A stretch of 43,656 nt of DNA. Origin: Candidatus Woesearchaeota archaeon (GTDB taxonomy: Archaea; Nanobdellota; Nanobdellia; Woesearchaeales; GW2011-AR4). Positions 1 through 12,646 of the stretch are shown piece after piece. The stretch spans positions 1-43,656 of the forward strand of contig JADHVG010000002.1 in the NCBI GenBank assembly GCA_016784105.1. The letters are read 5' to 3'. A program made the translations under genes and the position numbers. The notes beneath the pieces are model-generated. The model was not told where the DNA came from. It did no database searches and saw nothing but the letters and a program-made list of their open reading frames with translations. The stretch's first letter is position 1. Every line of letters begins with the position of its first letter.

Positions 1-1
1 C

Positions 2-892
2 CAAAAACCTGGATTTGTTGAATTTAAGATCCTAAATAATCTTCCACAATTAGATGATCTATGGTTTATGTTGGGAAGTAGATGTAATCTATCATGTAAG
101 CACTGTTACGTTGCTTCCTCTCCAACTAATGATAATTTAGAACAAATGTCTCTGGAAGATGTAATGCCTTTTTTGGAAGAAGCTAAATCTTTTGGGTTAA
201 AAAATATTTATTTCACGGGTGGAGAACCGTTCATCAATAAGGACATAATTGAGATATTGCAGAAATCATTAGAATACGGTAACGTAACTGTCCTTACTAA
301 CGCAACTTTTCCTTTAACAAGGTTTATTCCTTCTTTGAAAGAATTGAATGATAAAAGTTCTAATGAATTAAGATTTAGAGTTTCTTTGGATTATTTTTCT
401 AAAGAAAAACATGAAGCTATTCGTGGAAAAGGTAATTTTGATCTTACCCTAAAGAATGTTATTTCCTTGAAGAAATCTGGGTTTAAGGTTATCATAACAG
501 CAACCCCCCTAGTTTACGAAGATGGTAATACTTCGGAAAGTGCTTTACTTGGTTTTAAAGAATTATTTAAGAAAAATAATATTGATGTTGAAGTTAAAAT
601 GCTTCCTGAACTTGAGATGGGTTCTAATTTATCTAGGAAGAAACCTTCCAAGAAGGTATTTATCTCTGAGAACTGTATGAAGAGTGTAAATGAAGACATG
701 TTCCAATGTCATAATGGTAGAACCTTAGAGAAAATAGATGGCAAGATGGTTGTTTACCCATGTCCCATTATCTATTCTGACAAGAACTTTGAGCTTGCTA
801 ATAATCTAAAAGATTCCTTTGACAAGGTATTTTTAACTCATAAGGCATGTTATGATTTTTGTTACAAAAACGGTGGGAAGTGCACAAATTGA
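2..892 (+). CDS. Radical SAM protein, 5' end outside the window, with Cys-rich (SPASM/twitch-like) C-terminus
   Basis: The frame is open from nt 2 (QKPGFVEFKILNNLPQLDDLWF precedes the first Met). It has a CNLSCKHC CxxxCxxC cluster motif and a GGEPF motif. C-terminal cysteines are QCHNG, YPCP and ACYDFCYKNGGKC. TGA stop at 890-892. Confidence 0.8.
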   Translation, partial: QKPGFVEFKILNNLPQLDDLWFMLGSRCNLSCKHCYVASSPTNDNLEQMSLEDVMPFLEEAKSFGLKNIYFTGGEPFINKDIIEILQKSLEYGNVTVLTNATFPLTRFIPSLKELNDKSSNELRFRVSLDYFSKEKHEAIRGKGNFDLTLKNVISLKKSGFKVIITATPLVYEDGNTSESALLGFKELFKKNNIDVEVKMLPELEMGSNLSRKKPSKKVFISENCMKSVNEDMFQCHNGRTLEKIDGKMVVYPCPIIYSDKNFELANNLKDSFDKVFLTHKACYDFCYKNGGKCTN

Positions 893-984
893 TAGGAATA
901 ATAACTGGCTCAGGATTCTATTAGATTGTTTCTGGTAGAAAAGAGACTGTTGTATCTGTTTTTGGTAATGTTTTTGTTGATATT

Positions 985-1638
985 TTGGAGATTGATGGCC
1001 AGGAAGTAGCACACATCCCTAGACACGGTTCTAAACACGAGAAATTACCTAACATGATTAATCATAAAGCAAATATTGCTGCTTTGCACAAGTTAGGATG
1101 TAAGTTGATAGTTTCTACTTCGGTTTGTGGTTTAACTAATCCTAAACTTGAGCTTGGAAAACTATTATTGTTCTCTGACTTATTCTTTCCTGAGAATAGA
1201 CTTCCTAGTGGAGAACTGTGCACTTTCTTCATGGAACCTGGTGATATCAGAAGAGGACACTACATTACCAGTTCTCACTTCAACTCTCAAATACTCAAGC
1301 AATTGGAAAGCAAGGAAAGTTATTCTAATCTTACTTATGGTCATGTTAATGGTCCAAGATTTAATTCAAAATCCGAGATAGCTTTCCTCAAACAACACAC
1401 AGATGCAATATCACAAACATCTGGCCCAGAAGCCATCCTGAGTGGAGAGCTCGAAATACCTTACATCCTTCTCGGTTTCGGCATCGATTACGCGAACGGA
1501 ATCATGAAAGAACCGACACCAATAGAAACCCTCAACAAAAACCTAGAATTAAGTAAAGATGTCTTTAAGAAAACTATTTCTAAAATACTAAAAATGAAAG
1601 TTCCAAAATTTGAAGGGTTTGTCTATAGGTTTGAATAG
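985..1638 (+). CDS. S-methyl-5'-thioadenosine / purine nucleoside phosphorylase family protein, N-terminally disrupted (see finding)
   Basis: Family motifs are present: IPRHGSKH, INHKANIAAL, GPRFNS.SEI and GIDYANG. The track ORF starts at a TTG. The ancestral N-terminus (MIGIITGSGFY) lies upstream in the same frame, behind a TAG at 922-924. Confidence 0.7.
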   Translation: MEIDGQEVAHIPRHGSKHEKLPNMINHKANIAALHKLGCKLIVSTSVCGLTNPKLELGKLLLFSDLFFPENRLPSGELCTFFMEPGDIRRGHYITSSHFNSQILKQLESKESYSNLTYGHVNGPRFNSKSEIAFLKQHTDAISQTSGPEAILSGELEIPYILLGFGIDYANGIMKEPTPIETLNKNLELSKDVFKKTISKILKMKVPKFEGFVYRFE

Positions 1639-1747
1639 TGGAATAGCAATTTTAGTTAAATATTGCACTGGACATTCTCGCGTGAGGTTTATAAATAAGT
1701 TTAATTCTTATATATTAAAAAAGGTGATTGCATTGATAGTACAAGAA

Positions 1748-2389
1748 ATGGCTCTAGAACAGCGTCCTAGAGAAAGAGTTAAGGCTAATGGTGTTGAAGT
1801 TCTTTCTGATCCAGAATTATTAGCGATTATTTTACAGAATGGAAGCCAGGGAGAGAATGTTATTGACCTTTCTCATAGGTTAATCAACACTTTTGGTCTT
1901 GATAAATTAAATTCACTTTCTTTACAAGAATTAATGAAAATTAAAGGTATTAAATTGGCTAAAGCTTCTAAATTAATAGCTGCTTTTGAGTTAAGCAAAA
2001 GAGTTAATTCTGGCAAGATTTGTGAGAAAATTGTTTCTAATGCCGCAGATATTGCTTCTCATTACATGGAAAAACTAAAAGACCTAAAGAAAGAACATTT
2101 CATTGCTGTTTTCTTAGATACTAAAAACAAGATCATTTGTGATAAAGTTATTTCTATTGGAACCTTGAATTCTTCATTAGTACATCCACGTGAAGTCTTC
2201 AAAGAAGCCATTAAGGTAAGTGCTAATGCAATTATATTAGTGCATAATCATCCGAGTGGTGATTGTGAGGCTTCAGATGAGGATAGAAGGATTACTAAAA
2301 TTCTCATGGGTGCAGGTGAAATGGTCGGGATAAAAATTTTGGACCATATAATAATTGGTGAAGGTAAAAAATATGAAAGTATATGTTGA
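1748..2389 (+). CDS. radC: RadC-like JAB/MPN domain protein
   Basis: JAMM motif HNHPSGDCEASDED. N-terminal helix-hairpin-helix-like region (LSDPELLAIIL, LQELMKIKGIKLAKASKLIAAFEL). I prefer the ATG at 1748 to the 1610 extension, which overlaps the upstream gene. Confidence 0.85.
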   Translation: MALEQRPRERVKANGVEVLSDPELLAIILQNGSQGENVIDLSHRLINTFGLDKLNSLSLQELMKIKGIKLAKASKLIAAFELSKRVNSGKICEKIVSNAADIASHYMEKLKDLKKEHFIAVFLDTKNKIICDKVISIGTLNSSLVHPREVFKEAIKVSANAIILVHNHPSGDCEASDEDRRITKILMGAGEMVGIKILDHIIIGEGKKYESIC

Positions 2390-2762
2390 TACGTGTGTTT
2401 ATGTTGACCTTTTTGAAGGAAGAGTTAAAGCTGCTTTGGCATTCGACTTTTTTTCTCGTGGATGGAATTGTGCTTTTGAATTAGTAGTATCGGATTGGGT
2501 CAGATCAGAACTGGAAAGAAAAGGTATGGATAGTGAATATCCCCTACTTTTTGAAAAATTCAAGTCAAAGAACAAGCTTCATTTTGTAGAGCATACAGAA
2601 AAAGAACTCAAACTTGCTAAATCCAAATCAGAACACTGGCAGGACTATCTACACTATTTAATTGCAAAGAAATCCGGTTGTGATAAGATAGTAACTCATG
2701 ATAATGAGTTCATTACCTCTTTTTCACCCATCTTCGATATAGCTTATCCTGAGAATGTTTAG
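2373..2762 (+). CDS. PIN-domain nuclease (VapC-like)
   Basis: MKVYVDTCVYV gives the N-terminal Asp, SELER a mid acidic residue, and CDKIVTHDNEF the C-terminal T.D.xF motif. The GGTGAAGG element lies upstream of the ATG at 2373. The gene overlaps the radC 3' end by 17 nt. Confidence 0.6.
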   Translation: MKVYVDTCVYVDLFEGRVKAALAFDFFSRGWNCAFELVVSDWVRSELERKGMDSEYPLLFEKFKSKNKLHFVEHTEKELKLAKSKSEHWQDYLHYLIAKKSGCDKIVTHDNEFITSFSPIFDIAYPENV

Positions 2763-3633
2763 AATTAGTGTAATCAATAACCAAGTTTTCTATAATTCTA
2801 TTACTCTCAATTTTGATTTCATTAATTTTTTCCTGAAGATGAAGGTCTATGGAGTCTCCATAATAATCCCTCAAAGATTCTTTAAAAACTACTAATGAAA
2901 TATATTTCCAGACGTGTTCTGTGAATAAAAATTTTGATTTTTCCCATCCTAGAAGTAATGAAGTCCTAACAAAATCAGACACTGTGCTTATTGTTTCTTT
3001 GGGTGTTAGTTTAATTAAATCCATTAATAATCCATTAAGCTCATCTTTTTCTATTTCTGGTTTTGTAATCAATTTTTCTTTTAAAAGATAGAGTTCATTA
3101 TTTTCTTTCGAGTATACTTTCTTTTGTAGTTCTTCGCTTGTTAATTTACAGTACTCTTCCACTTTTCGTTTTATTAATTCTTTTTCATCCTTGTCTAATT
3201 CTTGATGTTTATGTTCAGTACCCCTGTAAATTCTCACTGCGCATGGTCCATGCTGATACCATCCAATCGGGAAGTTTCTTTCCTTATTTAATTCCCAAAG
3301 AATTTTGTATACTTGAGTTTTTGTTGGTTCTTTATTGTAAAGTTTTAGACATGTCTCTTTTATGTATGAATAAATGGTGGATAATTTTTTGTTATCTTCT
3401 TCTTTAATAGGTAAGTCAAAATAAGAGTCAGGATTATTTCTTAATTGTATATGTCTTTCTCTTCCCAATTTTTTTGTTTTCAGAACTCCTGCTTTTTCAA
3501 AAGCAGATATGTACTGAGAAAGTGTTACCCTGTTTATCTTAGAAGATTTACTCAGCTGATTTAGTGTTTGCTCTCCAATTCTAAGCGCATTAAGTACTAC
3601 TGGAATGATCTCTGAAGGTGAATTTCTTTCCAT
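2713..3633 (-). CDS. wHTH protein with uncharacterised C-terminal domain
   Basis: The N-terminal 65 aa look like a winged helix (QTLNQLSKSSKINRVTLSQYISAFEKAGVLKTKKLGRERH). The central segment QVYKILWELNKERNFPIGWYQHGPCAVRIY faintly resembles the SocA/Panacea (DUF4065) core. The 3' end overlaps the convergent PIN gene by 50 nt. Confidence 0.55.
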   Translation of the reverse strand: MERNSPSEIIPVVLNALRIGEQTLNQLSKSSKINRVTLSQYISAFEKAGVLKTKKLGRERHIQLRNNPDSYFDLPIKEEDNKKLSTIYSYIKETCLKLYNKEPTKTQVYKILWELNKERNFPIGWYQHGPCAVRIYRGTEHKHQELDKDEKELIKRKVEEYCKLTSEELQKKVYSKENNELYLLKEKLITKPEIEKDELNGLLMDLIKLTPKETISTVSDFVRTSLLLGWEKSKFLFTEHVWKYISLVVFKESLRDYYGDSIDLHLQEKINEIKIESNRIIENLVIDYTNSKHSQDKLYRRWVKKR

Positions 3634-3706
3634 AAGCTATAATTTGTTGATCATACTATATAAATATTTTGGTTTACTTGTTTATTTATATGATAATTAT
3701 AGCTTA
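3633..3706. repeat. Perfect 12-bp inverted repeat TAAGCTATAATT (3633-3644) / AATTATAGCTTA (3695-3706) with a 50-nt spacer
   Basis: Read directly from the sequence. The arms bracket the TATA candidate, and the left arm abuts the start codon of the wHTH gene. Confidence 0.8.
3657..3664 (-). promoter_or_regulatory. TATA-box candidate (TTTATATA on the minus strand) for the wHTH gene, implying a leaderless mRNA
   Basis: The plus strand reads tatataaa at 3657-3664, centred about 27 nt upstream of the start codon at 3633-3631, with an A-rich BRE-like flank. Confidence 0.5.
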
Positions 3707-3731
3707 CATATATTTATAAAAGAAAAGATAC

Positions 3732-4013
3732 TTAGCATTTGAATTTCGGGTTTCTATTGTACCCAATTTTTGGTTCATTGGATTTATGTTTCAAAATAAA
3801 TTCTACTTCTTTTTTATTAACTTCTTCATCTGTTGCTTTTTCAGATTGCCAGAGAATTTCCCTTCTAATTGTAAAATTTTTCTTTTCGTCATCTGAAAAA
3901 TCTTGTTCCAATAGTTTACTATTTGGAGTGCCGAAATATCTAAATGTTCCGGTTAAATCTTTTCCCACATATATTTTACCATTAGGATAAGTTATTTTGT
4001 ACATCCATTTCAT
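3732..4013 (-). CDS. Stand-alone GIY-YIG nuclease-domain protein (93 aa)
   Basis: MYKITYPNGKIYVGK gives the GIY...YIG spacing. It is followed by FRYFG (Arg), KKEVEFI (Glu) and GYNRN (Asn). The start lies 9 nt after the stop of the DUF2075 gene. Confidence 0.6.
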   Translation of the reverse strand: MKWMYKITYPNGKIYVGKDLTGTFRYFGTPNSKLLEQDFSDDEKKNFTIRREILWQSEKATDEEVNKKEVEFILKHKSNEPKIGYNRNPKFKC

Positions 4014-4022
4014 TTTACAGCT

Positions 4023-5894
4023 TTATTTTTTAATACAAGATTTGATATACTCCTGTAACTCTTTATCACAACAATAAACATAACACCCTTTTTGACCCCT
4101 AGTCATTAAAGTTCTATAAGTATTTTTAATTATTTCTTCTGCAATCTTTTTAGCTCTTTCTGGATTATTTTTTGCCATCTTCTTAATCCCTTTCAATGAT
4201 TGATCTGTCTTCGCTCGTTTATTGTAATCAGTAATAAGATTACCAGACCTAAATCTTAAATCTAACCCGATTATTACTCCAACATAATCAAATTCTAACC
4301 CTTGACAAGTATGAATACATCCTATTTCATTTACTGATTCTTTATCTATTGCCCAAGTAGAAGTGTTGCCCAAATTCCAACTCATTGAAAATTTAAATTG
4401 AGGCAGAGATATATCGTGAATGTTGCTTTTATCTTTCCCTTCTTTATTCCAATCCCAACAATATCCCGCCAATAGTCTTGCCTTGTTGTTCTCCTTATTT
4501 TTTTCTAATATCATTTCTTTTAATTTATTTGGGTCATCAATAATTCTAAAATTATATTCTCCCTCAAATCCATCAAAATTGGCAGTTTCACGTATACCTA
4601 ATAAATTATCAAGCCATGCAAGGTATCCATCTGAACCATTACACCTAAATTGTGAGTTTAACTCAACTATTTTTATTCCAGCATTAAATAATGATGCATA
4701 TTTTTTAATTTCAGATTTCCTTCCTATGTCAAAAATATCAATTTTCTGGCTTTCATCAATAAAAAATATACTAAATTTAGAGGAATTGATAATCTCTTTG
4801 ATTTGATTTTCTCCAAAATTTTTAAAAAAACCTGATTTTTCATTTAACCTATGTGCTTCATCTACAACTAAAACATCAAATACATTCTTATCACAATCGT
4901 GAAATATTCCAGAACTTTTGAATAAATTATCTATATGAGATTTTGTTGTTGTCCCTTTTAGCTTAGATGAATATACATTTCTGGGAGCCGAATTTTTTGA
5001 AATATAATGTACTACCATATTTTTATTGGTTAGTTTTACTAATAAATTTACAGCTAAGACTGATTTTCCAGTTCCTGGTCCGCCTTCCACTATTAGTACT
5101 CTTTTTTTGTTATCTTTAAAAGATTTAAGAGCCATAGATACTGCTTCTTCATAGACAATTTTTTGATCATCAATCAATGTAAATTCGTCATTACCCTCTA
5201 ATAAATTAACTAAAGAATCTTGTAGAGTTTTTGATGGTTTTAGCCTACCTTGGTCTATCTGGTATAATGTGTATTTATTATCGCCATATTTTATGAATTT
5301 AGATATAAATCTTCTAAGTTTCAGAACTTCTCCTTTTGTGTATATAGGAGCTTTTTCAAGATAATATGAATAAATCGGGTCTTCTATTTCAGGATTCTTA
5401 CTTCTATCTAGATTATGCAAAAAAGCACAAGGATAAATGCCAATATTCTCTTTTTGGACATTTTCATTAAAATCTTTAATTAAATTATGGTAAGACCATA
5501 CTTGGTAAGAAGGGTGAGTAGTTTCATGTATCCCCCTTCCTAATGGTGTTTTTACTATTGCATCCTTGCCATCAACCTTGTATACCTCATCCCACCTTTT
5601 TAACTCTATTATAACAACTAGATTATCTTTCTTTTCACCTTTGCCAGAAATTATGAAATCTACTCTTTTGCTAGTAGCTGGAATACGAAATTCAATAGCT
5701 ATCCCACAATTATTTGGAATTTCCTCTGATTGCACCACTTTATACATATATTGCATAGAATCTGACCATGAACTAATCTCTTTTTTAGATACTCCTCCAA
5801 TCTTTCTATGGTAATTGCTGTAGATTTCATCAGAAATAGTATCGTTTAAGACAGAATTGCAAAAATCATTTTTTGTTCCTTCGTATACTAACAT
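4023..5894 (-). CDS. DUF2075-family SF1-like ATPase/helicase with N-terminal PD-(D/E)xK nuclease-like module
   Basis: Walker A is VEGGPGTGKSV and Walker B/DEAH is VLVVDEAHRL. DUF2075-typical blocks are present: FFIDESQKI, SQFRCNGSDGYLAWLDNLL, AGYCWDW, CIHTCQGLEFDYVGVIIG, LMTRGQKGCYVY. The N-terminus has RVDFII ... VVIIELKRW (D ... ExK). Confidence 0.85.
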   Translation of the reverse strand: MLVYEGTKNDFCNSVLNDTISDEIYSNYHRKIGGVSKKEISSWSDSMQYMYKVVQSEEIPNNCGIAIEFRIPATSKRVDFIISGKGEKKDNLVVIIELKRWDEVYKVDGKDAIVKTPLGRGIHETTHPSYQVWSYHNLIKDFNENVQKENIGIYPCAFLHNLDRSKNPEIEDPIYSYYLEKAPIYTKGEVLKLRRFISKFIKYGDNKYTLYQIDQGRLKPSKTLQDSLVNLLEGNDEFTLIDDQKIVYEEAVSMALKSFKDNKKRVLIVEGGPGTGKSVLAVNLLVKLTNKNMVVHYISKNSAPRNVYSSKLKGTTTKSHIDNLFKSSGIFHDCDKNVFDVLVVDEAHRLNEKSGFFKNFGENQIKEIINSSKFSIFFIDESQKIDIFDIGRKSEIKKYASLFNAGIKIVELNSQFRCNGSDGYLAWLDNLLGIRETANFDGFEGEYNFRIIDDPNKLKEMILEKNKENNKARLLAGYCWDWNKEGKDKSNIHDISLPQFKFSMSWNLGNTSTWAIDKESVNEIGCIHTCQGLEFDYVGVIIGLDLRFRSGNLITDYNKRAKTDQSLKGIKKMAKNNPERAKKIAEEIIKNTYRTLMTRGQKGCYVYCCDKELQEYIKSCIKK

Positions 5895-5896
5895 GT

Positions 5897-6259
5897 TTAT
5901 AACTCATTATATTTTTTATTTGACCCTTTCGCTTTTTCGATTGGGTATTTTTCTTCATTCTTTTCCATTTTTTTATTTAAGGCTGTTGTTAGGTCTATAT
6001 CATATCTTTGTACAAGTCTTAATAAAAAATAAAGAGTATCAGCAATTTCTTCAGAAATCTTGCTTTTCTTATTTTCATCTTGAAACATTTTATCAACGTC
6101 TTTTTCGGATTTGAATCTAAAATGATGAAGAAGTTCAGATGATTCTGTAATAATTCCAATAACCAGTTCCTTTGCATTGTGGTATTGATCCCAGTCTCTA
6201 TCTCCACAGAATTTCTTGATTTTTTCTTTTAGTTCTTTTATGGTTGTCTTATCATCCAT
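5897..6259 (-). CDS. MazG-like (all-alpha) nucleoside-triphosphate pyrophosphohydrolase
   Basis: Motifs RDWDQYHNAKELVIGIITESSELLHHF, EEIADTLYFLLRL..YDIDL and KMEKNEEKYP are typical of the MazG/dCTP-pyrophosphatase-like fold. There are gaps of 2 and 3 nt to the neighbouring genes. Confidence 0.75.
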   Translation of the reverse strand: MDDKTTIKELKEKIKKFCGDRDWDQYHNAKELVIGIITESSELLHHFRFKSEKDVDKMFQDENKKSKISEEIADTLYFLLRLVQRYDIDLTTALNKKMEKNEEKYPIEKAKGSNKKYNEL

Positions 6260-6262
6260 CTT

Positions 6263-7435
6263 TCACTTTTTCCCTAAACTCAATCTATAATTCTCAGCTT
6301 TTGTTATAAACTTCCCTATGTCCTTTTTTAATTCTTTGGGCAATTTACCTTCCTTAACCAATTTACTTAGCTTAAACGTATCCAAGTCTGAAAGTTCTTC
6401 CCACAGTCCTTTATCTTTAATTAATTCATTCAACTCATCCCTATCTTTTTTTGCAGGAAATGATATTGTTTCAAAAGTCTTCAAAGATATTTTCTTGTTG
6501 CTTCCGTACACTGCGCTAATCTCCTTTTGTTTAGAAAACTCAATAAGTTTTTCCTTGATTTCCTCCATCTCTTTTTCCAATTCGCTAATTGTAGTTTTCA
6601 AAGCAGAAAACTTATCTACTAATTTAAGACCGTCATCTTCCTTAAACCCTTCAATGGTTTTTTGCTCTAATTCATAATCATGCTTGAAAGCAGGGCATAT
6701 TTGCTTAAATTCGCACCAATCACAAAGTCTTGTGACGTTTGTAGGAAACTCTTTACAAGCTTTAATCTCTTCAATCAGTGATTCAACTTCAGATTGTAAT
6801 TGTATAAGCTGTTCATCTGTCCTTATAGAGATTATCTCCTTGTCAAAGGCCAGAAAATGCCAGGTTAACTTAACAGACTTATAATCTGGAAAAGTTTTCT
6901 TAACCCAGATTGAATACATAGCTAATTGTCTATCTTCATCCAACTCATCTTGAGTCTTTAATGAAGAATTTGTCTTATAATCAACAATGAAGTAATTGCC
7001 CTCTTTATCTGCTGAAAGTCTATCGATTCTAATATGATAACTATCTCCATTAGAAAGAGGAAGCATGTTTTGAGTTTCTAATCCTAAAGTTATTAAGCTA
7101 TTAAACGGTTTATGACGATCATAATAATCAATTAAGCACTTAGTGCCTATTTTTTTGTAATTATCTACGCTATATTCTTTTTTTGCTATAAGGATATCTT
7201 CACTCCATTCCTTATTCCACAGCTCTTCATAAAATCCCAAAATTTCTTCTTTAGAATTAATTTTTTGATATTGAAGATCCTTATAGAGTTTATACAATGT
7301 CCTATGCACCATATCTCCCATAAACATCTCAACAGTTGTTGGAATTTCAACTTTGACCTTATCAATATATCTTAACTTAAACTTATACTTACAATGTTGA
7401 AAAGTTCCAAGTCTTGAATGTGAATAAGTTGTCAT
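6263..7435 (-). CDS. Cas4/RecB-like PD-(D/E)xK exonuclease with 4-Cys Fe-S signature and about 130-aa coiled-coil-rich C-terminal extension
   Basis: The N-terminus is YSHSRLGTFQHCKYKF (first Cys). Further motifs are GDMVHRTL, IRIDRLS...FIVDYKT and QLAMYS (QxxxY), followed by CDWCEFKQIC (C-x2-C-x5-C). Confidence 0.8.
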   Translation of the reverse strand: MTTYSHSRLGTFQHCKYKFKLRYIDKVKVEIPTTVEMFMGDMVHRTLYKLYKDLQYQKINSKEEILGFYEELWNKEWSEDILIAKKEYSVDNYKKIGTKCLIDYYDRHKPFNSLITLGLETQNMLPLSNGDSYHIRIDRLSADKEGNYFIVDYKTNSSLKTQDELDEDRQLAMYSIWVKKTFPDYKSVKLTWHFLAFDKEIISIRTDEQLIQLQSEVESLIEEIKACKEFPTNVTRLCDWCEFKQICPAFKHDYELEQKTIEGFKEDDGLKLVDKFSALKTTISELEKEMEEIKEKLIEFSKQKEISAVYGSNKKISLKTFETISFPAKKDRDELNELIKDKGLWEELSDLDTFKLSKLVKEGKLPKELKKDIGKFITKAENYRLSLGKK

Positions 7436-7436
7436 T

Positions 7437-7985
7437 TTATATAATAATTAATTCTTTATTTTTAATATCTGCATAGATTATTTTTATTCCTTCTTGTTTA
7501 AATGACCCTACTTCTTTTTCAGTCAACTTCCCAGCAAAATCAAAATAAATAAAAAATTTGTTTGAGCCTACATCATAATCAACATCTACTTCTTTTAATT
7601 TTTTTATATCTTCCTTAAAATTTTTAATTATAGTGTTTTTTGAAGGAGTCCATGTGTTTTTTAATTCAAATACTGCAATTAATTTTTTGATGCTTAGATT
7701 TTCAGGCATGCCAAAATTTTCAGGTTTTCCTGATTTCTTGAGTTTATAATCTGCACTTTTCTTATCAAATATTATGAGGTCATGTTTCATGTTACCTCTT
7801 CCAGAATTTTCTGTTGTCCACTCAGTTGTCAAGGTGTTTTCACAACGAGGATTTAATCTACTGTACAGCTCACAACACAAATCATTCTCACTGATAATAA
7901 AAGGGACTTTCCCTTCTTGATTAGAATCACAAGTTTTTTCAAAAATCTCAGTTATTATCTTTTTAACTTCTTGATGTAGATTCAT
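7437..7985 (-). CDS. Small PD-(D/E)xK-like (restriction-endonuclease fold) protein
   Basis: The pattern E...D...ExK is present as SENDLCCELY, HDLIIFD and IAVFELK. There is a 1-nt gap to the downstream gene and a 3-nt gap to the upstream gene. Confidence 0.5.
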   Translation of the reverse strand: MNLHQEVKKIITEIFEKTCDSNQEGKVPFIISENDLCCELYSRLNPRCENTLTTEWTTENSGRGNMKHDLIIFDKKSADYKLKKSGKPENFGMPENLSIKKLIAVFELKNTWTPSKNTIIKNFKEDIKKLKEVDVDYDVGSNKFFIYFDFAGKLTEKEVGSFKQEGIKIIYADIKNKELIII

Positions 7986-7988
7986 TTT

Positions 7989-8483
7989 TTATTTGTCAAG
8001 TTTATTGAAATTTGTTAGCATGAAACCTACTGTTCCTATGAGAATTATAATTGCAATCCCTCCAAAAATTAATTTTGAAGAAGCAGAACTGAAATCATCT
8101 ATTCCTAACGTACTTAAAAATCCCATAGTGCCCAAAAAAGCTAAAGCAGAACCAGTAAATGCAATCATACGGTTGAAACTTTTTTGGTATTTCAAGTATT
8201 TCTCATTAGTTAATGTCTTTCTCAATTCATGAAGCTTTCTTAAACCAACTTGAGTTAATTTGTACACTCTTTTTTGTCCATTTTCAATAACATACGGTTT
8301 TTCTCCACCTAAACAATATCTAGAAAATAAATGGAAGTTATGTTCTCCCCATACCTGAATCATAATTTTTTTGTTAATTTGTTCAAAGTACTCTTCAATA
8401 AATTCCATCATAGTGGCCACTCCTCGCAATGAATCTTTGCTTAACGGAATCCTTTTGAACATTTTACTCTCAATAAGATCCAC
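7989..8483 (-). CDS. Membrane-anchored protein: about 100-aa soluble (possibly wHTH-like) N-domain plus two C-terminal TM helices
   Basis: TM segments are MIAFTGSALAFLGTMGFLSTLGI and LIFGGIAIIILIGTVGFMLTNF. KRVYKLTQVGLRKLHELR resembles a winged-helix wing. The track ORF starts at a GTG at 8483. The ATG at 8462 (MFKRIP) fits a leaderless start 28 nt from the TATA candidate. Confidence 0.6.
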   Translation of the reverse strand: MDLIESKMFKRIPLSKDSLRGVATMMEFIEEYFEQINKKIMIQVWGEHNFHLFSRYCLGGEKPYVIENGQKRVYKLTQVGLRKLHELRKTLTNEKYLKYQKSFNRMIAFTGSALAFLGTMGFLSTLGIDDFSSASSKLIFGGIAIIILIGTVGFMLTNFNKLDK

Positions 8484-8485
8484 CC

Positions 8486-8495
8486 ATATAAAAAT
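8486..8495 (-). promoter_or_regulatory. TATA-box candidate (ATTTTTATAT on the minus strand) for the six-gene operon
   Basis: The plus strand reads atataaaaat at 8486-8495, immediately downstream of the GT2 gene stop and about 28 nt upstream of the ATG at 8462. Confidence 0.45.
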
Positions 8496-9179
8496 TTACC
8501 CTACAACCTTCTCATAAACTTTCTTTATTTTCTCATAACTAAACCCTAAATGGTACATTATCATCAAGATAAAATAAACAAAACTTAATCTAATTATTCC
8601 TTTCTCTAAGTATTTCCTTCTGGATATTGTTATTTTGTTTTTTATTGTTTTTAGTTTTCCTAATTTTTTCATTCTTTTTGAAAAATCTAAGTCTTCCATG
8701 ATGGGAATCTGTTTGAAACCTCCAAGTTTTTCAAAAACTTCTTTTTTTACGAAGATTGCTTGGTCGCCGAAGAAGATCTTGAAGAAAGAAGAACGAAAAT
8801 TAGATCTAAAAGAAACTAATTTTAGTAGGAAATTGTTTTCTTTAAACTGTTGGAAAAACCCTCCACCAACATGACCTTCTCTAATTGATTTTTCTATTTC
8901 TTCTAGTGCGTTTACTGGTAAAACAGAATCTGCATGTAAAAACAATAAAACATCTCCTTCAGAGTATCTAGAACCTAAATTCATCTGCAAGCTTCTTCCT
9001 TTAGAACTTCTGAAATATTTTATTTTTTTATTTTTTATTGAATTTATTTTTTTTAATGTTTTATCCTTGCCAGAATCTACTATTATTATTTCATAATTCT
9101 CATTTTGTGAATAAATTGAATCTAAGCATTCCAAAATAATTTTTGATTCATTATATACTGGGATTACTATAGAAATCAT
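8496..9179 (-). CDS. Family 2 glycosyltransferase (TIGR04283-like)
   Basis: Motifs include ISIVIPVYNES, IIIVDSG, LLFLHADS, GDQAIFVKKEVFEKLGGF and IMEDLDFSKRM. The ATG at 9179 forms an ATGA overlap with the upstream TVP38 stop. The track ORF extends to 9206. Confidence 0.8.
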   Translation of the reverse strand: MISIVIPVYNESKIILECLDSIYSQNENYEIIIVDSGKDKTLKKINSIKNKKIKYFRSSKGRSLQMNLGSRYSEGDVLLFLHADSVLPVNALEEIEKSIREGHVGGGFFQQFKENNFLLKLVSFRSNFRSSFFKIFFGDQAIFVKKEVFEKLGGFKQIPIMEDLDFSKRMKKLGKLKTIKNKITISRRKYLEKGIIRLSFVYFILMIMYHLGFSYEKIKKVYEKVVG

Positions 9180-9880
9180 TTTAGAAGTATTTTTCCTTTT
9201 AACCATAAAAAATTATGTTTTTCTACTAGGTAAGGAACCAAAAAGAATCCTATAATAATTACTAGGGTAGAGATTATTATGATAAAATTATTCCCTATAG
9301 CAAAACTTTCTCCTAACTTCGCAAATAGGTAGGTCATGGGCAGCATTCCAATATAAGTTGCTAGAGCAAAATTACGTAGTTTCATGTTTGTTAGACCAGC
9401 TCCATAACTTACTATGTCAAATTGAAAGAATGGAAACAAGCGAGCTACCAAAACCAGCCAAAACAAGTAACGTTCGGAGCAATTATAGCATATTGTCATC
9501 TGTTTGCGGAAATATTTGTTCATTATATCTTTTCCTAAATAGCGTGCTATAGAAAATGCGATAACTGCTCCCATCAATGCTCCTATGGAAGCATATAATG
9601 TTGCTAACCAAGGTCCCCAAACTATACCTGCAGCCGCATCTAATGGCAAGCTGGGTATGGGGCTTATTACAATAGCTAAGGCCATAAGAAGAATAAAGAA
9701 TAAAGGTCCAAACACTCCAACGCTTTCAATTTGCTGGTTTATGTTATTCACATTAAAGTAAGAAGCAAAATGAAAGGAGTGGCTTAAAACAAAATAAAAG
9801 ATTATTATTGAAAAGAAAACTGCCAGAATTATCAGTTTCTTGTTCTTTTTAGGCTTTTGCTTTGAATTTTTTTTGGACAT
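9176..9880 (-). CDS. TVP38/TMEM64 (DedA-related, SNARE-associated) family membrane protein
   Basis: Multi-pass membrane protein with PIPSLPLDAAAGIVWGPWLATLYASIGALMGAVIAFSIARYLGKD. Confidence 0.8.
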   Translation of the reverse strand: MSKKNSKQKPKKNKKLIILAVFFSIIIFYFVLSHSFHFASYFNVNNINQQIESVGVFGPLFFILLMALAIVISPIPSLPLDAAAGIVWGPWLATLYASIGALMGAVIAFSIARYLGKDIMNKYFRKQMTICYNCSERYLFWLVLVARLFPFFQFDIVSYGAGLTNMKLRNFALATYIGMLPMTYLFAKLGESFAIGNNFIIIISTLVIIIGFFLVPYLVEKHNFLWLKGKILLK

Positions 9881-10523
9881 ATTTATAGAGTGGTAAGGTA
9901 AAAATCAACAGTATAAATAAAGCTATTGATAAGATAAACTGGGGCGACATTAAATTCCCGGATTGTCCACCAATATTAGCTAAAATCATCGAACCGGGTA
10001 TTATTCCCAGAAAAGTTCCAAGGATATAGTCTCTTTTCCTTATTTTTGTTAGGCCCATCGCAAAATTTAAGCCATTAAATGGGAATAGTGGGATCAAACG
10101 TAAAAATAACATGACCAAAAACCCGTTCTTCTCTATTTTTTCATCGTATTCATAGATTTTTTTGAATTTGTTCTTAAGAAGTTTGTTAACGAAGTCTCCT
10201 CCAAAAAATCTAGCTATAAGAAAAGCAATTCCAGCCCCGATGGTTGCTCCTACTACTGTTAGCATGCCTCCTTTGAGTGTTCCAAACAGCACTCCAGAGG
10301 CTATCGTGAAGGGTGTTCCGGGTAAGAAGGTTACGGTAACGATGACATACACTAAGATAAAGATTAAGGACCCATATACTCCTGCTTCTTGTATTAGTTC
10401 TCTGACTTTTTCCACACTCATGTAGTCTCCTAGAGCCGTATATTTAGCTGCTAAAACCAGAGAAACTATTATTAAGAGTAATATAGAAAATTTTAATCCA
10501 CTCTTTCTAAATTTTTTTAACAT
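9849..10523 (-). CDS. TVP38/TMEM64 family membrane protein (paralogue)
   Basis: FLPGTPFTIASGVLFGTLKGGMLTVVGATIGAGIAFLIARFFGGDF. It overlaps the downstream paralogue by 32 nt. Confidence 0.8.
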   Translation of the reverse strand: MLKKFRKSGLKFSILLLIIVSLVLAAKYTALGDYMSVEKVRELIQEAGVYGSLIFILVYVIVTVTFLPGTPFTIASGVLFGTLKGGMLTVVGATIGAGIAFLIARFFGGDFVNKLLKNKFKKIYEYDEKIEKNGFLVMLFLRLIPLFPFNGLNFAMGLTKIRKRDYILGTFLGIIPGSMILANIGGQSGNLMSPQFILSIALFILLIFTLPLYKYVQKKFKAKA

Positions 10524-10544
10524 ATTCTTTACACTTTTTTTCTT

Positions 10545-10552
10545 TATATAAA
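10545..10552 (-). promoter_or_regulatory. TATA-box candidate (TTTATATA on the minus strand) for the TVP38/TVP38/GT2 genes
   Basis: The plus strand reads tatataaa at 10545-10552, centred about 25 nt upstream of the start codon at 10523. Confidence 0.45.
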
Positions 10553-10560
10553 CACTATCT

Positions 10561-11970
10561 TTAATACAACCACTTCAAGATCTTTTTAGTTCTTTCATTA
10601 AGTTTTTTTGAGAAACTATCGCTTATTATTTTTTTGTTCACGCGAGAAGCAACTGGATATGGATATATCTTGTTAAAGATGTTCTTGACACTTAATCCAG
10701 AAGAATTAGCTAAAATTAGCTCTTGAGCTATTTCTCCAGCGTTCTTTGCTACCATGCTCCCACCAAGTATTTTATTCTTAGAAACAAATAATATAGTTTT
10801 TCCATTAACAAAATCATCTACTATTGATCTATCATCGTGCTCAAAGTCTAAAACTAACTTCTCATACTTCTTCCCTTTTAATTGCTCTTCATTAAAGCCA
10901 AAAGTTGCTATCTCTGGATCTGTATATGTAACCCATGAAAATTTAGAATAACTCAATTTCTTCTTAAAAGGAGAGAAGAAGTTGCTTATGATAACGGAAG
11001 CATGAAGTTCAGCTGCGTGCGTAAATTGATAACCTCCGGCGATATCTCCACACAATAAAACATCTTTGTTGGTTGTTCTTAAATATTCATCAACTTTTAT
11101 TTTTCTGTCAAATTCTATGCCCGCATTTGCTAGATCTAAACCTTCAACATTTAAATCCCTCCCAATGCTAACTAGAACTTCATCAAAATCAATATTTTCT
11201 TCTTTGTCCTCACATGAGAGAATAGCTTCATTAGATGATAAAAATTCCTTTACGGATGTATCAAACTTGATATCGATACCTTCCTTAACCAGCTGTTCAT
11301 ACAAAACCAGAGCCATTTCCTCTGATTCTTTTGGCAAGAACTTATCTCCTCTAATTAGAATAGTGACTTTTGATCCTAACCTAGAAAATGCTTGGGATAA
11401 CTCCACTCCAATAGGACCTCCACCTATAACTAGCAACTTCTCAGGTAATTCTTCAAGATCGAAGATTGTTTCGTTAGTTTGATAACGAACATTCTCAACA
11501 CCTTTAACAGATAATTTTCTGGGTCTGGAACCGGTAGCTAAAACTATCTTCTTTGCAGTGTACTTATTACCATTTACCGTAACAGAATTCTTCCCGGAAA
11601 ATTTTGCTAAACCAAGCTCAACGTCCATCCCTATTTTCTTAAAATAGCTAGCATTTTCATGTTCTCTAATAACTTCTTTTTTAGACCGAACATAGTCCAT
11701 CACTTTTCTCAAGCTAACTTTACCAGAAGTTTCTAAACCGAACTTCTCAGCTTCTTTTCCTGAATGAACTAATTTAGAAACGTGAATTAAAGCCTTGCTG
11801 GGAACACACCCAAAGTTTAAACAATCTCCACCTATATTCTCATCTTTCTTATCTATCAGCAAAACCTTAAAACCTGCCTTGTTCATGAATCCAGCTATAT
11901 TAAGACCACCAGAACCCGCACCAATAACTATAATATCGTAATTCATTTTTATTTCACTAAACTTTTGCAT
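10561..11970 (-). CDS. Class I pyridine-nucleotide-disulfide oxidoreductase (dihydrolipoamide dehydrogenase / mercuric-reductase-like)
   Basis: FAD fold YDIIVIGAGSGG, redox-active disulfide GGDCLNFGCVPSK, a second Rossmann LLVIGGGPIGVE and a C-terminal dimerisation-domain-like region. The ATG at 11946 (MNYDIIVIG) is an alternative start. Confidence 0.85.
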   Translation of the reverse strand: MQKFSEIKMNYDIIVIGAGSGGLNIAGFMNKAGFKVLLIDKKDENIGGDCLNFGCVPSKALIHVSKLVHSGKEAEKFGLETSGKVSLRKVMDYVRSKKEVIREHENASYFKKIGMDVELGLAKFSGKNSVTVNGNKYTAKKIVLATGSRPRKLSVKGVENVRYQTNETIFDLEELPEKLLVIGGGPIGVELSQAFSRLGSKVTILIRGDKFLPKESEEMALVLYEQLVKEGIDIKFDTSVKEFLSSNEAILSCEDKEENIDFDEVLVSIGRDLNVEGLDLANAGIEFDRKIKVDEYLRTTNKDVLLCGDIAGGYQFTHAAELHASVIISNFFSPFKKKLSYSKFSWVTYTDPEIATFGFNEEQLKGKKYEKLVLDFEHDDRSIVDDFVNGKTILFVSKNKILGGSMVAKNAGEIAQELILANSSGLSVKNIFNKIYPYPVASRVNKKIISDSFSKKLNERTKKILKWLY

Positions 11971-11991
11971 TATTAAACTTGTATTAAAGTA

Positions 11992-12009
11992 TTAAACCTT
12001 TGGTTTAAT
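11992..12009. promoter_or_regulatory. Palindrome ATTAAACC-tt-GGTTTAAT in a divergent intergenic region (operator candidate)
   Basis: Read directly. The related arms ATTAATAACC (12011-12020) and GGTTAATAAT (12047-12056) match 9/10 as an inverted repeat. Confidence 0.4.
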
Positions 12010-12142
12010 CATTAATAACCATAAGCAATAATTATTACTTCCTAGTGGTTAATAATGAAAACACTTATAAACGCTTATTCTTTATGAATCTAATCATAAG
12101 TTATATATGTATTTTTAGATAATAATGTTATTTGGGGCATAA

Positions 12143-12646
12143 ATGGAAGGAATTTTAGATGGGGAACCAGAAGATTCTTTAGATGCTCTTGTGGAAGAAG
12201 ATGAAAAAGGATTTATGCAAAGACATCCTTGGTTTGGACCTGGAACAACTTTGGCAACAGTTCTAACAGTATTTCTTGGAGGAGCATATTTTATTGGGTG
12301 GGATAAAGATATTGCAGAATTTGTTGAAGATGTGGAAAATTATCTTTCTGATTCTAAACTTGGAACAAAACTTGACATATCTAAGTTGAGACAAAACTGT
12401 CAAAGTCCAGCCTATCTTGCAAGAGAGTTTGGAAGTTTTTCTGAAAAAGAAAGAAAAAATCAATGTCAGGATTTAGCATGGAAACAGAGTTGTGATAATT
12501 TTGTCCAGAATGAAAAATATGATGCTTCTAGAGGTTCTTTCAGATCTCTTTCCTTATTCTATGATACTTCCAACCTAACTGCAAAAACCGACACTGAAAT
12601 AATTATCGGGGAAAAATTAAGCACAGGGACTTGTTTGTCCAGATAG
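12143..12646 (+). CDS. Hypothetical protein with one predicted TM segment
   Basis: ATG ORF of 167 aa. The acidic N-terminus is followed by TLATVLTVFLGGAYFIGW. An AT-rich TATA-like element lies about 35 nt upstream. No family recognised. Confidence 0.5.
   Translation: MEGILDGEPEDSLDALVEEDEKGFMQRHPWFGPGTTLATVLTVFLGGAYFIGWDKDIAEFVEDVENYLSDSKLGTKLDISKLRQNCQSPAYLAREFGSFSEKERKNQCQDLAWKQSCDNFVQNEKYDASRGSFRSLSLFYDTSNLTAKTDTEIIIGEKLSTGTCLSR

Follow-up and report, generated by a model that had tools for sequence, protein, structure and literature searches.

Pairs of genes for a MazG-like pyrophosphatase and a DUF2075 protein have been listed before among the defence candidates of bacteria. In Table S2 of Millman et al. 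2022 (bioRxiv 10.1101/2022.05.11.491447), SG192 (entered as "Pyrophosphatase") of Bacillus firmus LK28 consists of a 98-amino acid (aa) pyrophosphatase and a 643-aa DUF2075 protein, and for SG193, the corresponding candidate of B. thuringiensis, cloning failed. Another described system of related architecture is Nhi (S. epidermidis SERP2475; Bari et al. 2022), in which a nuclease is joined to a superfamily 1B (SF1B)/DUF2075 helicase. In the literature library searched, no paper was found that names or validates the MazG-DUF2075 pair, and none on PDC-S41, a candidate system of PADLOC. The subject of the present analysis is a block of six genes (g1–g6; 3732–8483, minus strand) on contig JADHVG010000002.1, of which a stretch of 43,656 nucleotides (nt), called the window below, was analysed. 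In the original prediction, the six genes were regarded as one undescribed defence system. The reading now preferred, and held to be fairly probable, sees in the block a mosaic defence island, which lies at a variable chromosomal spot next to radC and is built around g4 (the pyrophosphatase) and g5 (the DUF2075 protein), rather than a six-component machine. The pair itself is not new, since it has already been flagged as the unnamed and unvalidated defence candidate SG192/SG193.

The evidence for the pair lies first of all in its relatives. The sample comprised 80 species-level genome loci and 18 metagenome loci, each with a full-length relative of g5 (54–85% identical); one of the metagenome loci, L106, belongs to the strain of the window itself. 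Of the 80 genome loci, 52 gave a tblastn match to g4 and none a match to g1, g2, g3, g6 or the neighbouring gene g7, and when the neighbouring open reading frames (ORFs) were clustered, a MazG-like family recurred in 51 loci and the next family in 8. The MazG gene is located at most 200 nt from the DUF2075 gene in 44 of the 80 genomes (26 upstream, 17 downstream and 1 divergent) and 0.2–4.9 kilobases (kb) away in 8 further ones, and it abuts the DUF2075 gene in 13 of the 18 metagenome loci. The pair is carried by Woesearchaeota, Thermoplasmatota, Methanobacteria, Bacillota and a cyanobacterial Rep3/resolvase element, and since the two genes are adjacent in both gene orders across these lineages, g4 and g5 are taken to be a functional pair. 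An undescribed system of six genes did not stand up to this comparison, because only g4 recurs with g5 in the 80 + 18 loci. The relatives of g5 extend from DPANN archaea to Bacillota, those of the Bacillota being 54–61% identical over residues 1–623, and they were also found on 34 plasmids; a scan of the 2.9 million contigs of IMG/VR with the g5 profile gave no relative.

The DUF2075 protein g5 matches the Pfam family PF09848 (SLFN-g3_helicase/DUF2075) with an E-value of 1.4e-105. In an alignment of 50 g5 sequences, Walker A (GGPGTGKS), DEAH and the residues E68, D79, E97 and K99 are all invariant, and the AlphaFold2 (AF2) model (predicted local distance difference test (pLDDT) 86, predicted template modelling score (pTM) 0.81) puts these four residues on an N-terminal alpha-beta-beta-beta-alpha-beta unit in the canonical arrangement. 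The best Foldseek matches of the model are SLFN11, DSH9 and RecD2, followed by nsp13, Dna2, Dda and Upf1; a PDB sequence search with g5 gave no usable match. The earlier description of g5 as an N-terminal PD-(D/E)xK domain joined to a DUF2075 SF1 ATPase is thus borne out by the Pfam match and the invariant motifs. In a Thermoplasmatota metagenome-assembled genome (L009, 3931–6429), the DUF2075 gene is split over two frames, its C-terminal part forming an ORF of its own, and has no MazG neighbour; it is probably a pseudogene or an assembly frameshift.

The assignment of g4 as a MazG-like nucleoside triphosphate (NTP) pyrophosphohydrolase is confirmed as well. It matches PF12643 above the cut-off (E 7.4e-13; 49 bits against 27) and is a full-length homologue of DCTPP1/RS21-C6 (PDB 2a3q and 6sqw; 4e-18, residues 5–120), with E39, E42, E71 and D74 aligned to the metal-binding acidic residues of DCTPP1 (E-x2-E ... 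E-x2-D). Among the loci L006–L085, the MazG partners are 54–66% identical to g4 in about 9 loci and 30–47% identical in the others, and the bacterial DUF2075 proteins are 54–61% identical to g5 whichever MazG identity class accompanies them; to judge from these identities, the DUF2075 protein may have changed its pyrophosphatase partner in the course of evolution.

How the pair is placed in a chromosome can be seen from related Woesearchaeota. In the marine contig L092, ORFs for g3 (50% identical), g6 (73%), MazG (60%) and DUF2075 (77%) overlap or nearly abut, the g6 copy standing between g3 and MazG. Contigs L092 and L107 are syntenic over an AAA gene, a 178-aa gene, a Csa3-like gene and g3, and compared with L107, a GmrSD gene and the g6-MazG-DUF2075 segment are inserted in L092 on either side of g3. 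According to this synteny, g3 is resident and g6-g4-g5 is a cassette. Moreover, L006 and L099 have RadC orthologues (79% and 67%) on the downstream side of the DUF2075 gene; in L099 the two genes are direct neighbours, and in L006 two small ORFs lie between them. The pair therefore occupies the same chromosomal spot in related Woesearchaeota. The genes around the pair vary from locus to locus (Table 1), and even in the closest relatives (g5 84–85% identical) other genes occupy the positions of g1, g2 and g6. The bacterial loci abound in ResIII/helicase, PLD, Fic, Mrr, McrBC-like, DUF3427, HNH and JetD genes in their immediate flanks. This gene content fits a defence island, and it points to a bias of the pair's neighbours to modification-dependent restriction enzymes. 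The island had also been suspected, without computation, of being richer in AT than its flanks, and this is the case: the block has a GC content of 29.8% and the remaining part of the window 35.0%, and among 778 sliding windows the block ranks 36th. A defence-type role, which the original prediction had suggested for all six genes, is therefore plausible for the g4+g5 core, in view of the Nhi architecture, the restriction- and toxin-rich islands and the AT-richness, and is not supported for a six-gene unit.

What the domains are, that their active-site residues are intact, that g4 and g5 are conserved neighbours, and how the island and its synteny look are observed; the scheme of action that can be proposed from this is inferred in every activity and substrate, as is defence itself. 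By analogy with Nhi, g5 would be loaded onto foreign DNA or replication intermediates, its SF1B motor would unwind them, and its N-terminal PD-(D/E)xK domain would cut them. Like DCTPP1, g4 would hydrolyse deoxycytidine triphosphate (dCTP), 5-modified dCTP or related base-modified deoxynucleoside triphosphates (dNTPs), by which the nucleotide pool used by the virus would be starved or sanitised. As an optional extra nuclease, g6 might add nicking, and g3, the resident Cas4-like exonuclease beside the cassette, may process the DNA ends made by g5 (end resection). The genes g1 and g2, seen in this strain only, are no part of the core.

Several points weigh against the reading of the block as a mosaic island around a defensive pair. 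In the table of Millman et al. 2022 (bioRxiv 10.1101/2022.05.11.491447), the "observed defense" column for SG192 holds an x, i.e., none, and defence is consequently unproven even for the g4+g5 core. MazG is missing despite full flanks in 25 of the 80 genomes with g5, which means that g4 is dispensable in many hosts. The g5 family is also conserved unusually strongly for an immune gene, with 54–61% identity between archaeal and bacterial members. The co-transcription of g1–g6 is deduced from the spacing and one TATA-like box. Finally, three non-orthologous kinds of Cas4-family nuclease occur in one slot upstream of MazG, and to judge from this, g3 may be more than a bystander.

The last point concerns the nature of g3. 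Its description as a Cas4/RecB-like nuclease with iron-sulphur (Fe-S) cysteines proved correct: it matches PDDEXK_1 of Pfam (E 2.4e-30), with weak Cas4 matches as well, and C15, C238, C241 and C247 are invariant across 22 homologues together with the RecB motifs D138, D152, K154, Q170 and Y174. A PDB sequence search with g3 gave no usable match. More than 1500 homologues exist; those among the matches listed are 51–75% identical and nearly all full-length, and where named they belong to Woesearchaeota and Nanoarchaeota, a lineage throughout which the family is found as far as these matches indicate. One homologue lies on a 1.1-Mb contig among AdoHcyase, RFC and class II tRNA-synthetase genes, and others lie in toxin-antitoxin- or restriction-rich regions. 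In L086 (5103–12685), a small ORF with D...E-x-K precedes and overlaps the homologue that is closest among the matches listed (75% identical), and downstream of this homologue are genes for an N6/N4 methyltransferase of 1043 aa, a ResIII helicase of 956 aa and an integrase; the g3 family therefore also occurs inside a mobile, restriction-type island. A Csa3-like regulator with CARF and winged helix-turn-helix (wHTH) domains is encoded upstream of the g3 orthologue in L092 (3672–6130) and in L107 (4384–4986), the GmrSD type IV restriction gene of L092 being inserted between the two, and no CRISPR-Cas genes were found within the fetched stretch of either of these marine Woesearchaeota contigs.

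Directly upstream of MazG and on the same strand, a Cas4-family nuclease is encoded in the window and in five related loci (Table 1), and a 222-aa protein of the Cas4-like type is encoded in L093, 1.4 kb upstream of MazG on the opposite strand. Orthology between g3 and the 220-aa Cas4-like protein of L006 was considered and rejected, since only the catalytic region aligns, and weakly. The slot raises the possibility that the DPANN unit is a system of three or four genes, i.e., a Cas4-family exonuclease, a MazG/DCTPP1-like enzyme, a DUF2075 nuclease-helicase and sometimes a mini GIY-YIG protein, with g1 and g2 as passengers; the Cas4-like enzyme would then give the end resection that bacteria get from host RecBCD/AddAB. 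The occurrence of a Cas4-family gene directly upstream of MazG in four settings argues for such a unit, as do the three non-orthologous kinds in one slot, which look like displacement under functional constraint, and the overlapping or nearly abutting g3, g6, MazG and DUF2075 genes of L092. However, g3 is lineage-wide and is also found among housekeeping genes and, without the pair, at the syntenic L107; no Cas4-like neighbour exists in the bacterial loci or in L007, L094 and L096; the archaeal loci are few, and some contigs are possibly close relatives of each other; and an enrichment of such nucleases is in any case a general trait of defence islands. This reading is kept as the main rival of the preferred one and is regarded as unlikely. 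If it were true, a DPANN system would join modified-dNTP hydrolysis to helicase-driven degradation of viral DNA, and it might target viruses with modified cytosines, a target suggested because the pair neighbours GmrSD, DpnI, Mrr, McrBC-like and DUF3427 genes.

The same core can also be viewed as non-immune, that is to say, g4 and g5 with g3 would be a module of DNA repair and nucleotide house-cleaning, in which DCTPP1-type sanitation of modified dCTP would accompany the work of a Dna2/Schlafen-like nuclease-helicase on replication intermediates that have stalled or been damaged. The close homology of g4 to the house-cleaning enzyme DCTPP1, the likeness of the g5 model to SLFN11 and Dna2, the very strong conservation of the g5 family with its many invariant residues, the lack of phage defence by SG192 and the housekeeping look of g3 would all suit such a module. 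What makes it improbable, nevertheless, is the patchy distribution, which implies horizontal transfer across domains, the presence of the pair on plasmids and on the Rep3/resolvase element, the consistent neighbourhood of restriction, type IV, toxin-antitoxin and Fic genes, and the low GC of the block.

One argument for the proposal that all six genes belong to a single undescribed system of defence, in which four nucleases and a motor would act together with nucleotide depletion and a membrane protein as sensor or effector, is their layout. The ORF calls reproduced the six minus-strand ORFs (that of g1 being 7989–8483 from its GTG, the others as in Table 1) and their gaps of 3, 1, 3, 2 and 9 nt from g1 to g6, and the single TATA candidate is present where it had been placed. 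In the gene calls on identical contigs, g1 starts at ATG 8462 (157 aa) and not at GTG 8483 (164 aa), and ATG 8462 is the more likely start; with it, the TATA-like ATTTTTATAT is 24 nt upstream of the start codon, which fits a leaderless archaeal mRNA, and 12 nt past the stop codon of a glycosyltransferase (GT2) gene. No further strong TATA-like motif was found in the upstream regions of g2–g6, a T-rich tract follows the stop codon of g6, and g7 has a TATA box of its own (TTTATATA, about 24 nt before its ATG); a single g1–g6 transcription unit is plausible on account of this tract and the separate g7 box, and by this sequence arrangement the six genes are probably transcribed from one promoter. 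However, 49% of the gaps between same-strand neighbours in the window are at most 12 nt (median 16), which weakens tight packing as evidence for one system; the idea that it indicates a system was rejected, such packing being the genomic norm here. The co-directional run even extends upstream of g1, where only 33 nt separate the end of the GT2 gene from the g1 ATG.

Two further arguments for six components are that an identical block is carried by six other metagenome contigs and that no model of a named multi-gene system in PADLOC-DB v2.0.0 covers the six genes (g1, g2 and g6 have no matches there, and g3, g4 and g5 have weak or partial matches to unrelated systems). The identical contigs, with proteins 100% identical, are however of the same strain, and the statement that no named system covers the block is right for the PADLOC models and incomplete for the g4+g5 pair, which had been flagged as SG192/SG193. 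Since g3 is resident, g6 is optional, and neither g1 nor g2 occurs in any of the 98 related loci (80 genome and 18 metagenome) outside this strain, while the nearest relatives differ at the positions of g1, g2 and g6, one system of six genes is very improbable.

The two strain-only genes illustrate this. The searches for homologues of g1 covered family libraries, phage genomes and the g5-relative loci: it has no family match in Pfam, PADLOC, NCBIfam or PHROG and no tblastn match in 50,697 phage genomes. Two C-terminal transmembrane helices had been claimed for it; one strong hydrophobic segment (residues 131–149) is indeed present, and the second is only weaker. Among 5.8 billion proteins, g2 has a single homologue (46% identity, on a 1.7-kb marine contig), with which it shares E33, D69, E107 and K109; it has no match in Pfam, PADLOC, NCBIfam, PHROG or a PDB sequence search, and none by tblastn in the 50,697 phage genomes. 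A relation of g2 to the small PD-(D/E)xK-like ORF upstream of the L086 g3 homologue was rejected, as there is no similarity. It may be that g1 and g2 constitute a separate small module of a membrane protein and a nuclease.

The free-standing GIY-YIG nuclease seen in g6 stands in part. The g6 family has 1039 representatives with the conserved pattern IYKITYPNGKIYVG...E-x2-FI...GYN (E69, GYN86), and Y5, Y15, G17, E69 and N86 are conserved in it, with the Arg after the YIG motif varying; 5 of 40 family members reach the Pfam GIY-YIG family (best 6.5e-5), g6 itself gives no match above the threshold, and the assignment consequently holds at the family level only. The single-sequence AF2 model of g6 (pLDDT 47.6) is too low for use, and PDB searches with g6, including a 40-sequence profile, gave no usable match. 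From its distribution, g6 appears as an optional accessory of g4+g5 in two lineages, at differing positions. Elsewhere, a 97-aa family member is flanked by cas3 and cas5d in a type I-C CRISPR-Cas operon (L166, 5001–5294), and another is a lone gene among housekeeping genes (L162); the family behaves as a promiscuous small insert.

The remainder of the window consists of genes of cellular metabolism (VTT-domain proteins, pyridine-nucleotide oxidoreductase, pyruvate kinase, malic enzyme, glutamate dehydrogenase and others), which indicates a chromosome and not a provirus, and the closest homologues bear the name Candidatus Woesearchaeota; the block lies in a Woesearchaeota-like chromosome. No CRISPR array (tandem-repeat/CRISPR scan), no tRNA (tRNA scan) and no Rfam match were found in the whole window, and no flanking direct repeats or att-like repeats in 1–12500; the absence of a CRISPR array and of an integrase had been noted before and stands. 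The GenBank record PP438423.1 ("Microcystis phage Mwe-JY31"; L159; 22 kb) carries a MazG (44%) and a DUF2075 gene (53%) with a Rep3-type initiator, a resolvase and a TPR protein, and the other ORFs tested have no Pfam match and no structural-protein match, so that L159 looks like a plasmid-like element rather than a phage. A provirus or integrated mobile element whose DNA-metabolism module (exonuclease, MazG, helicase, homing endonuclease) would be represented by the block was rejected and is extremely improbable, for although g3 and g4 match the PHROG exonuclease phrog_69 (4e-21) and pyrophosphatase phrog_3301 (4e-12), g6 weakly matches homing-endonuclease PHROGs, the GC of the block is low and one "phage" record carries the pair, the window has metabolic flanks and no structural, replication or integrase genes, IMG/VR holds no g5 relative and only nuclease domains 22–25% identical to g3, repeats and tRNA are absent as stated, and the record in question is plasmid-like.

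Table 1. Features of the six-gene block and its surroundings in the window, and corresponding genes of related loci
Feature	Position	Strand	Description
TATA-like box ATTTTTATAT	8486..8495	-	Candidate promoter of the g1–g6 unit, from sequence
g1	7989..8462	-	157 aa; N-terminal part soluble, putatively wHTH-like; one or two hydrophobic helices at the C-terminus
g2	7437..7985	-	182-aa orphan; possible PD-(D/E)xK motif D69...E107-x-K109
g3	6263..7435	-	390 aa; Cas4/RecB-like PD-(D/E)xK nuclease, four-cysteine cluster, C-terminal helical domain of about 140 aa
g4	5897..6259	-	MazG-like all-alpha NTP pyrophosphohydrolase; DCTPP1/RS21-C6 homologue
g5	4023..5894	-	623 aa; N-terminal PD-(D/E)xK-like domain and DUF2075/Schlafen-group-3 SF1B ATPase
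g6	3732..4013	-	93 aa; predicted stand-alone GIY-YIG-like mini-nuclease
g7	2713..3633	-	306 aa; weak N-terminal wHTH, own TATA box; neighbour outside the unit
RadC and PIN genes	1610..2762	+	RadC 6e-43, PIN 5e-7; conserved chromosomal flank of the island
Slot upstream of MazG, window			g3, 390 aa
Slot upstream of MazG, L092			g3 orthologue
Slot upstream of MazG, L006, L098, L099			217–220 aa, PDDEXK_1 (4e-9, L006 protein)
Slot upstream of MazG, L089			484 aa, Cas_Cas4 and DUF2779
Neighbours of the pair, L006			OLD-family ATPase, methyltransferase, restriction-endonuclease-like ORF (read from sequence), Fic
Neighbours of the pair, L093			DpnI, methyltransferase, nucleotidyltransferase/HEPN-like pair (read from sequence)
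Neighbours of the pair, L092			GmrSD, Csa3-like gene
Neighbours of the pair, L089			g7-like/PIN pair

On the two sides of the block, some further features may be added. RadC, PIN and a weak wHTH gene adjoin it, as originally described; the latter, g7, matches HTH_5 at 0.0017 and, weakly, wHTH domains of the Csa3/CasR type. The genes for g7 and PIN converge (2355–3633 of the window), their 3′ ends overlapping by 50 nt, and in L089 (5259–6654) a g7-like gene (27%) and a PIN gene (32%), located downstream of the DUF2075 gene, likewise converge and overlap; g7/PIN may be a conserved two-gene module of its own. At the other side, the GT2 gene (8496–9206) has the lowest GC of the region (26.6%), and the 4.8-kb sliding window of minimum GC starts at 4501. 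Because this window takes in the GT2 gene, the AT-rich and possibly acquired segment may, by its composition, extend past the six genes.

The pair is of interest in that each partner has a counterpart by homology in humans (the SLFN11 helicase domain and DCTPP1), and in that it is widely shared, with 54–61% identity between DPANN archaea and Bacillota and with copies on plasmids, while the only published test was negative. The archaeal extra nucleases and the modification-dependent restriction neighbours together suggest that modified-base viruses and a Cas4-like partner may matter. For genome scans, the lesson is that tight co-directional packing in compact DPANN genomes is not evidence for one system.

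In comparison with known systems, g3 shares with CRISPR Cas4 the RecB motifs and the characteristic four-cysteine cluster, but it is a 390-aa protein with an extra C-terminal domain, it scores 28 bits against TIGR00372 (cut-off 65), and neither a CRISPR array nor cas1/cas2 accompanies it. With the eukaryotic proteins, the likeness is one of domains: g4 aligns to human DCTPP1 over its full length, and g5 matches the Pfam family SLFN-g3_helicase and has SLFN11 as its top Foldseek match, whereas the identity of g5 to SLFN11 is about 11%, the N-terminal (tRNA) nuclease domain of SLFN11 is different, and SLFN11 and DCTPP1 are not genetically linked to each other. Partial matches of g5, confined to its N-terminal domain and the beginning of its ATPase, were also obtained to PDC-S41 (residues 3–302 at 5e-17, profile positions 5–275 of 657) and to AbiO (residues 235–420 at 2e-14), and g5 is therefore not a member of either by these models. 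The architecture of an N-terminal PD-(D/E)xK domain and a DUF2075 SF1B motor is shared by g5 with Nhi and Nhi-like proteins, and Dda, Upf1 and Dna2 are structural neighbours common to Nhi and g5. However, the PADLOC Nhi model covers only residues 239–419 of g5 (E 4.5e-13), BLAST aligns g5 to the Nhi-like protein of B. cereus (SG141; Millman et al. 2022) at the Walker A region only, and Nhi acts as a single gene, while the relatives of g5 are mostly paired with MazG. It is with SG192/SG193 that the locus has the arrangement itself in common, namely a MazG-like pyrophosphatase gene beside a DUF2075 gene, here with a gap of 2 nt between g4 and the g5 gene downstream of it; where the SG192 DUF2075 protein is available (400 residues), its identity with g5 is 54%. 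Those candidates are bacterial and without accessory nucleases, whereas the present one is archaeal, with g6 and a Cas4-like neighbour; the locus is best seen as a mosaic island around the previously flagged, unvalidated MazG-DUF2075 pair, with archaeal accessory nucleases beside it.

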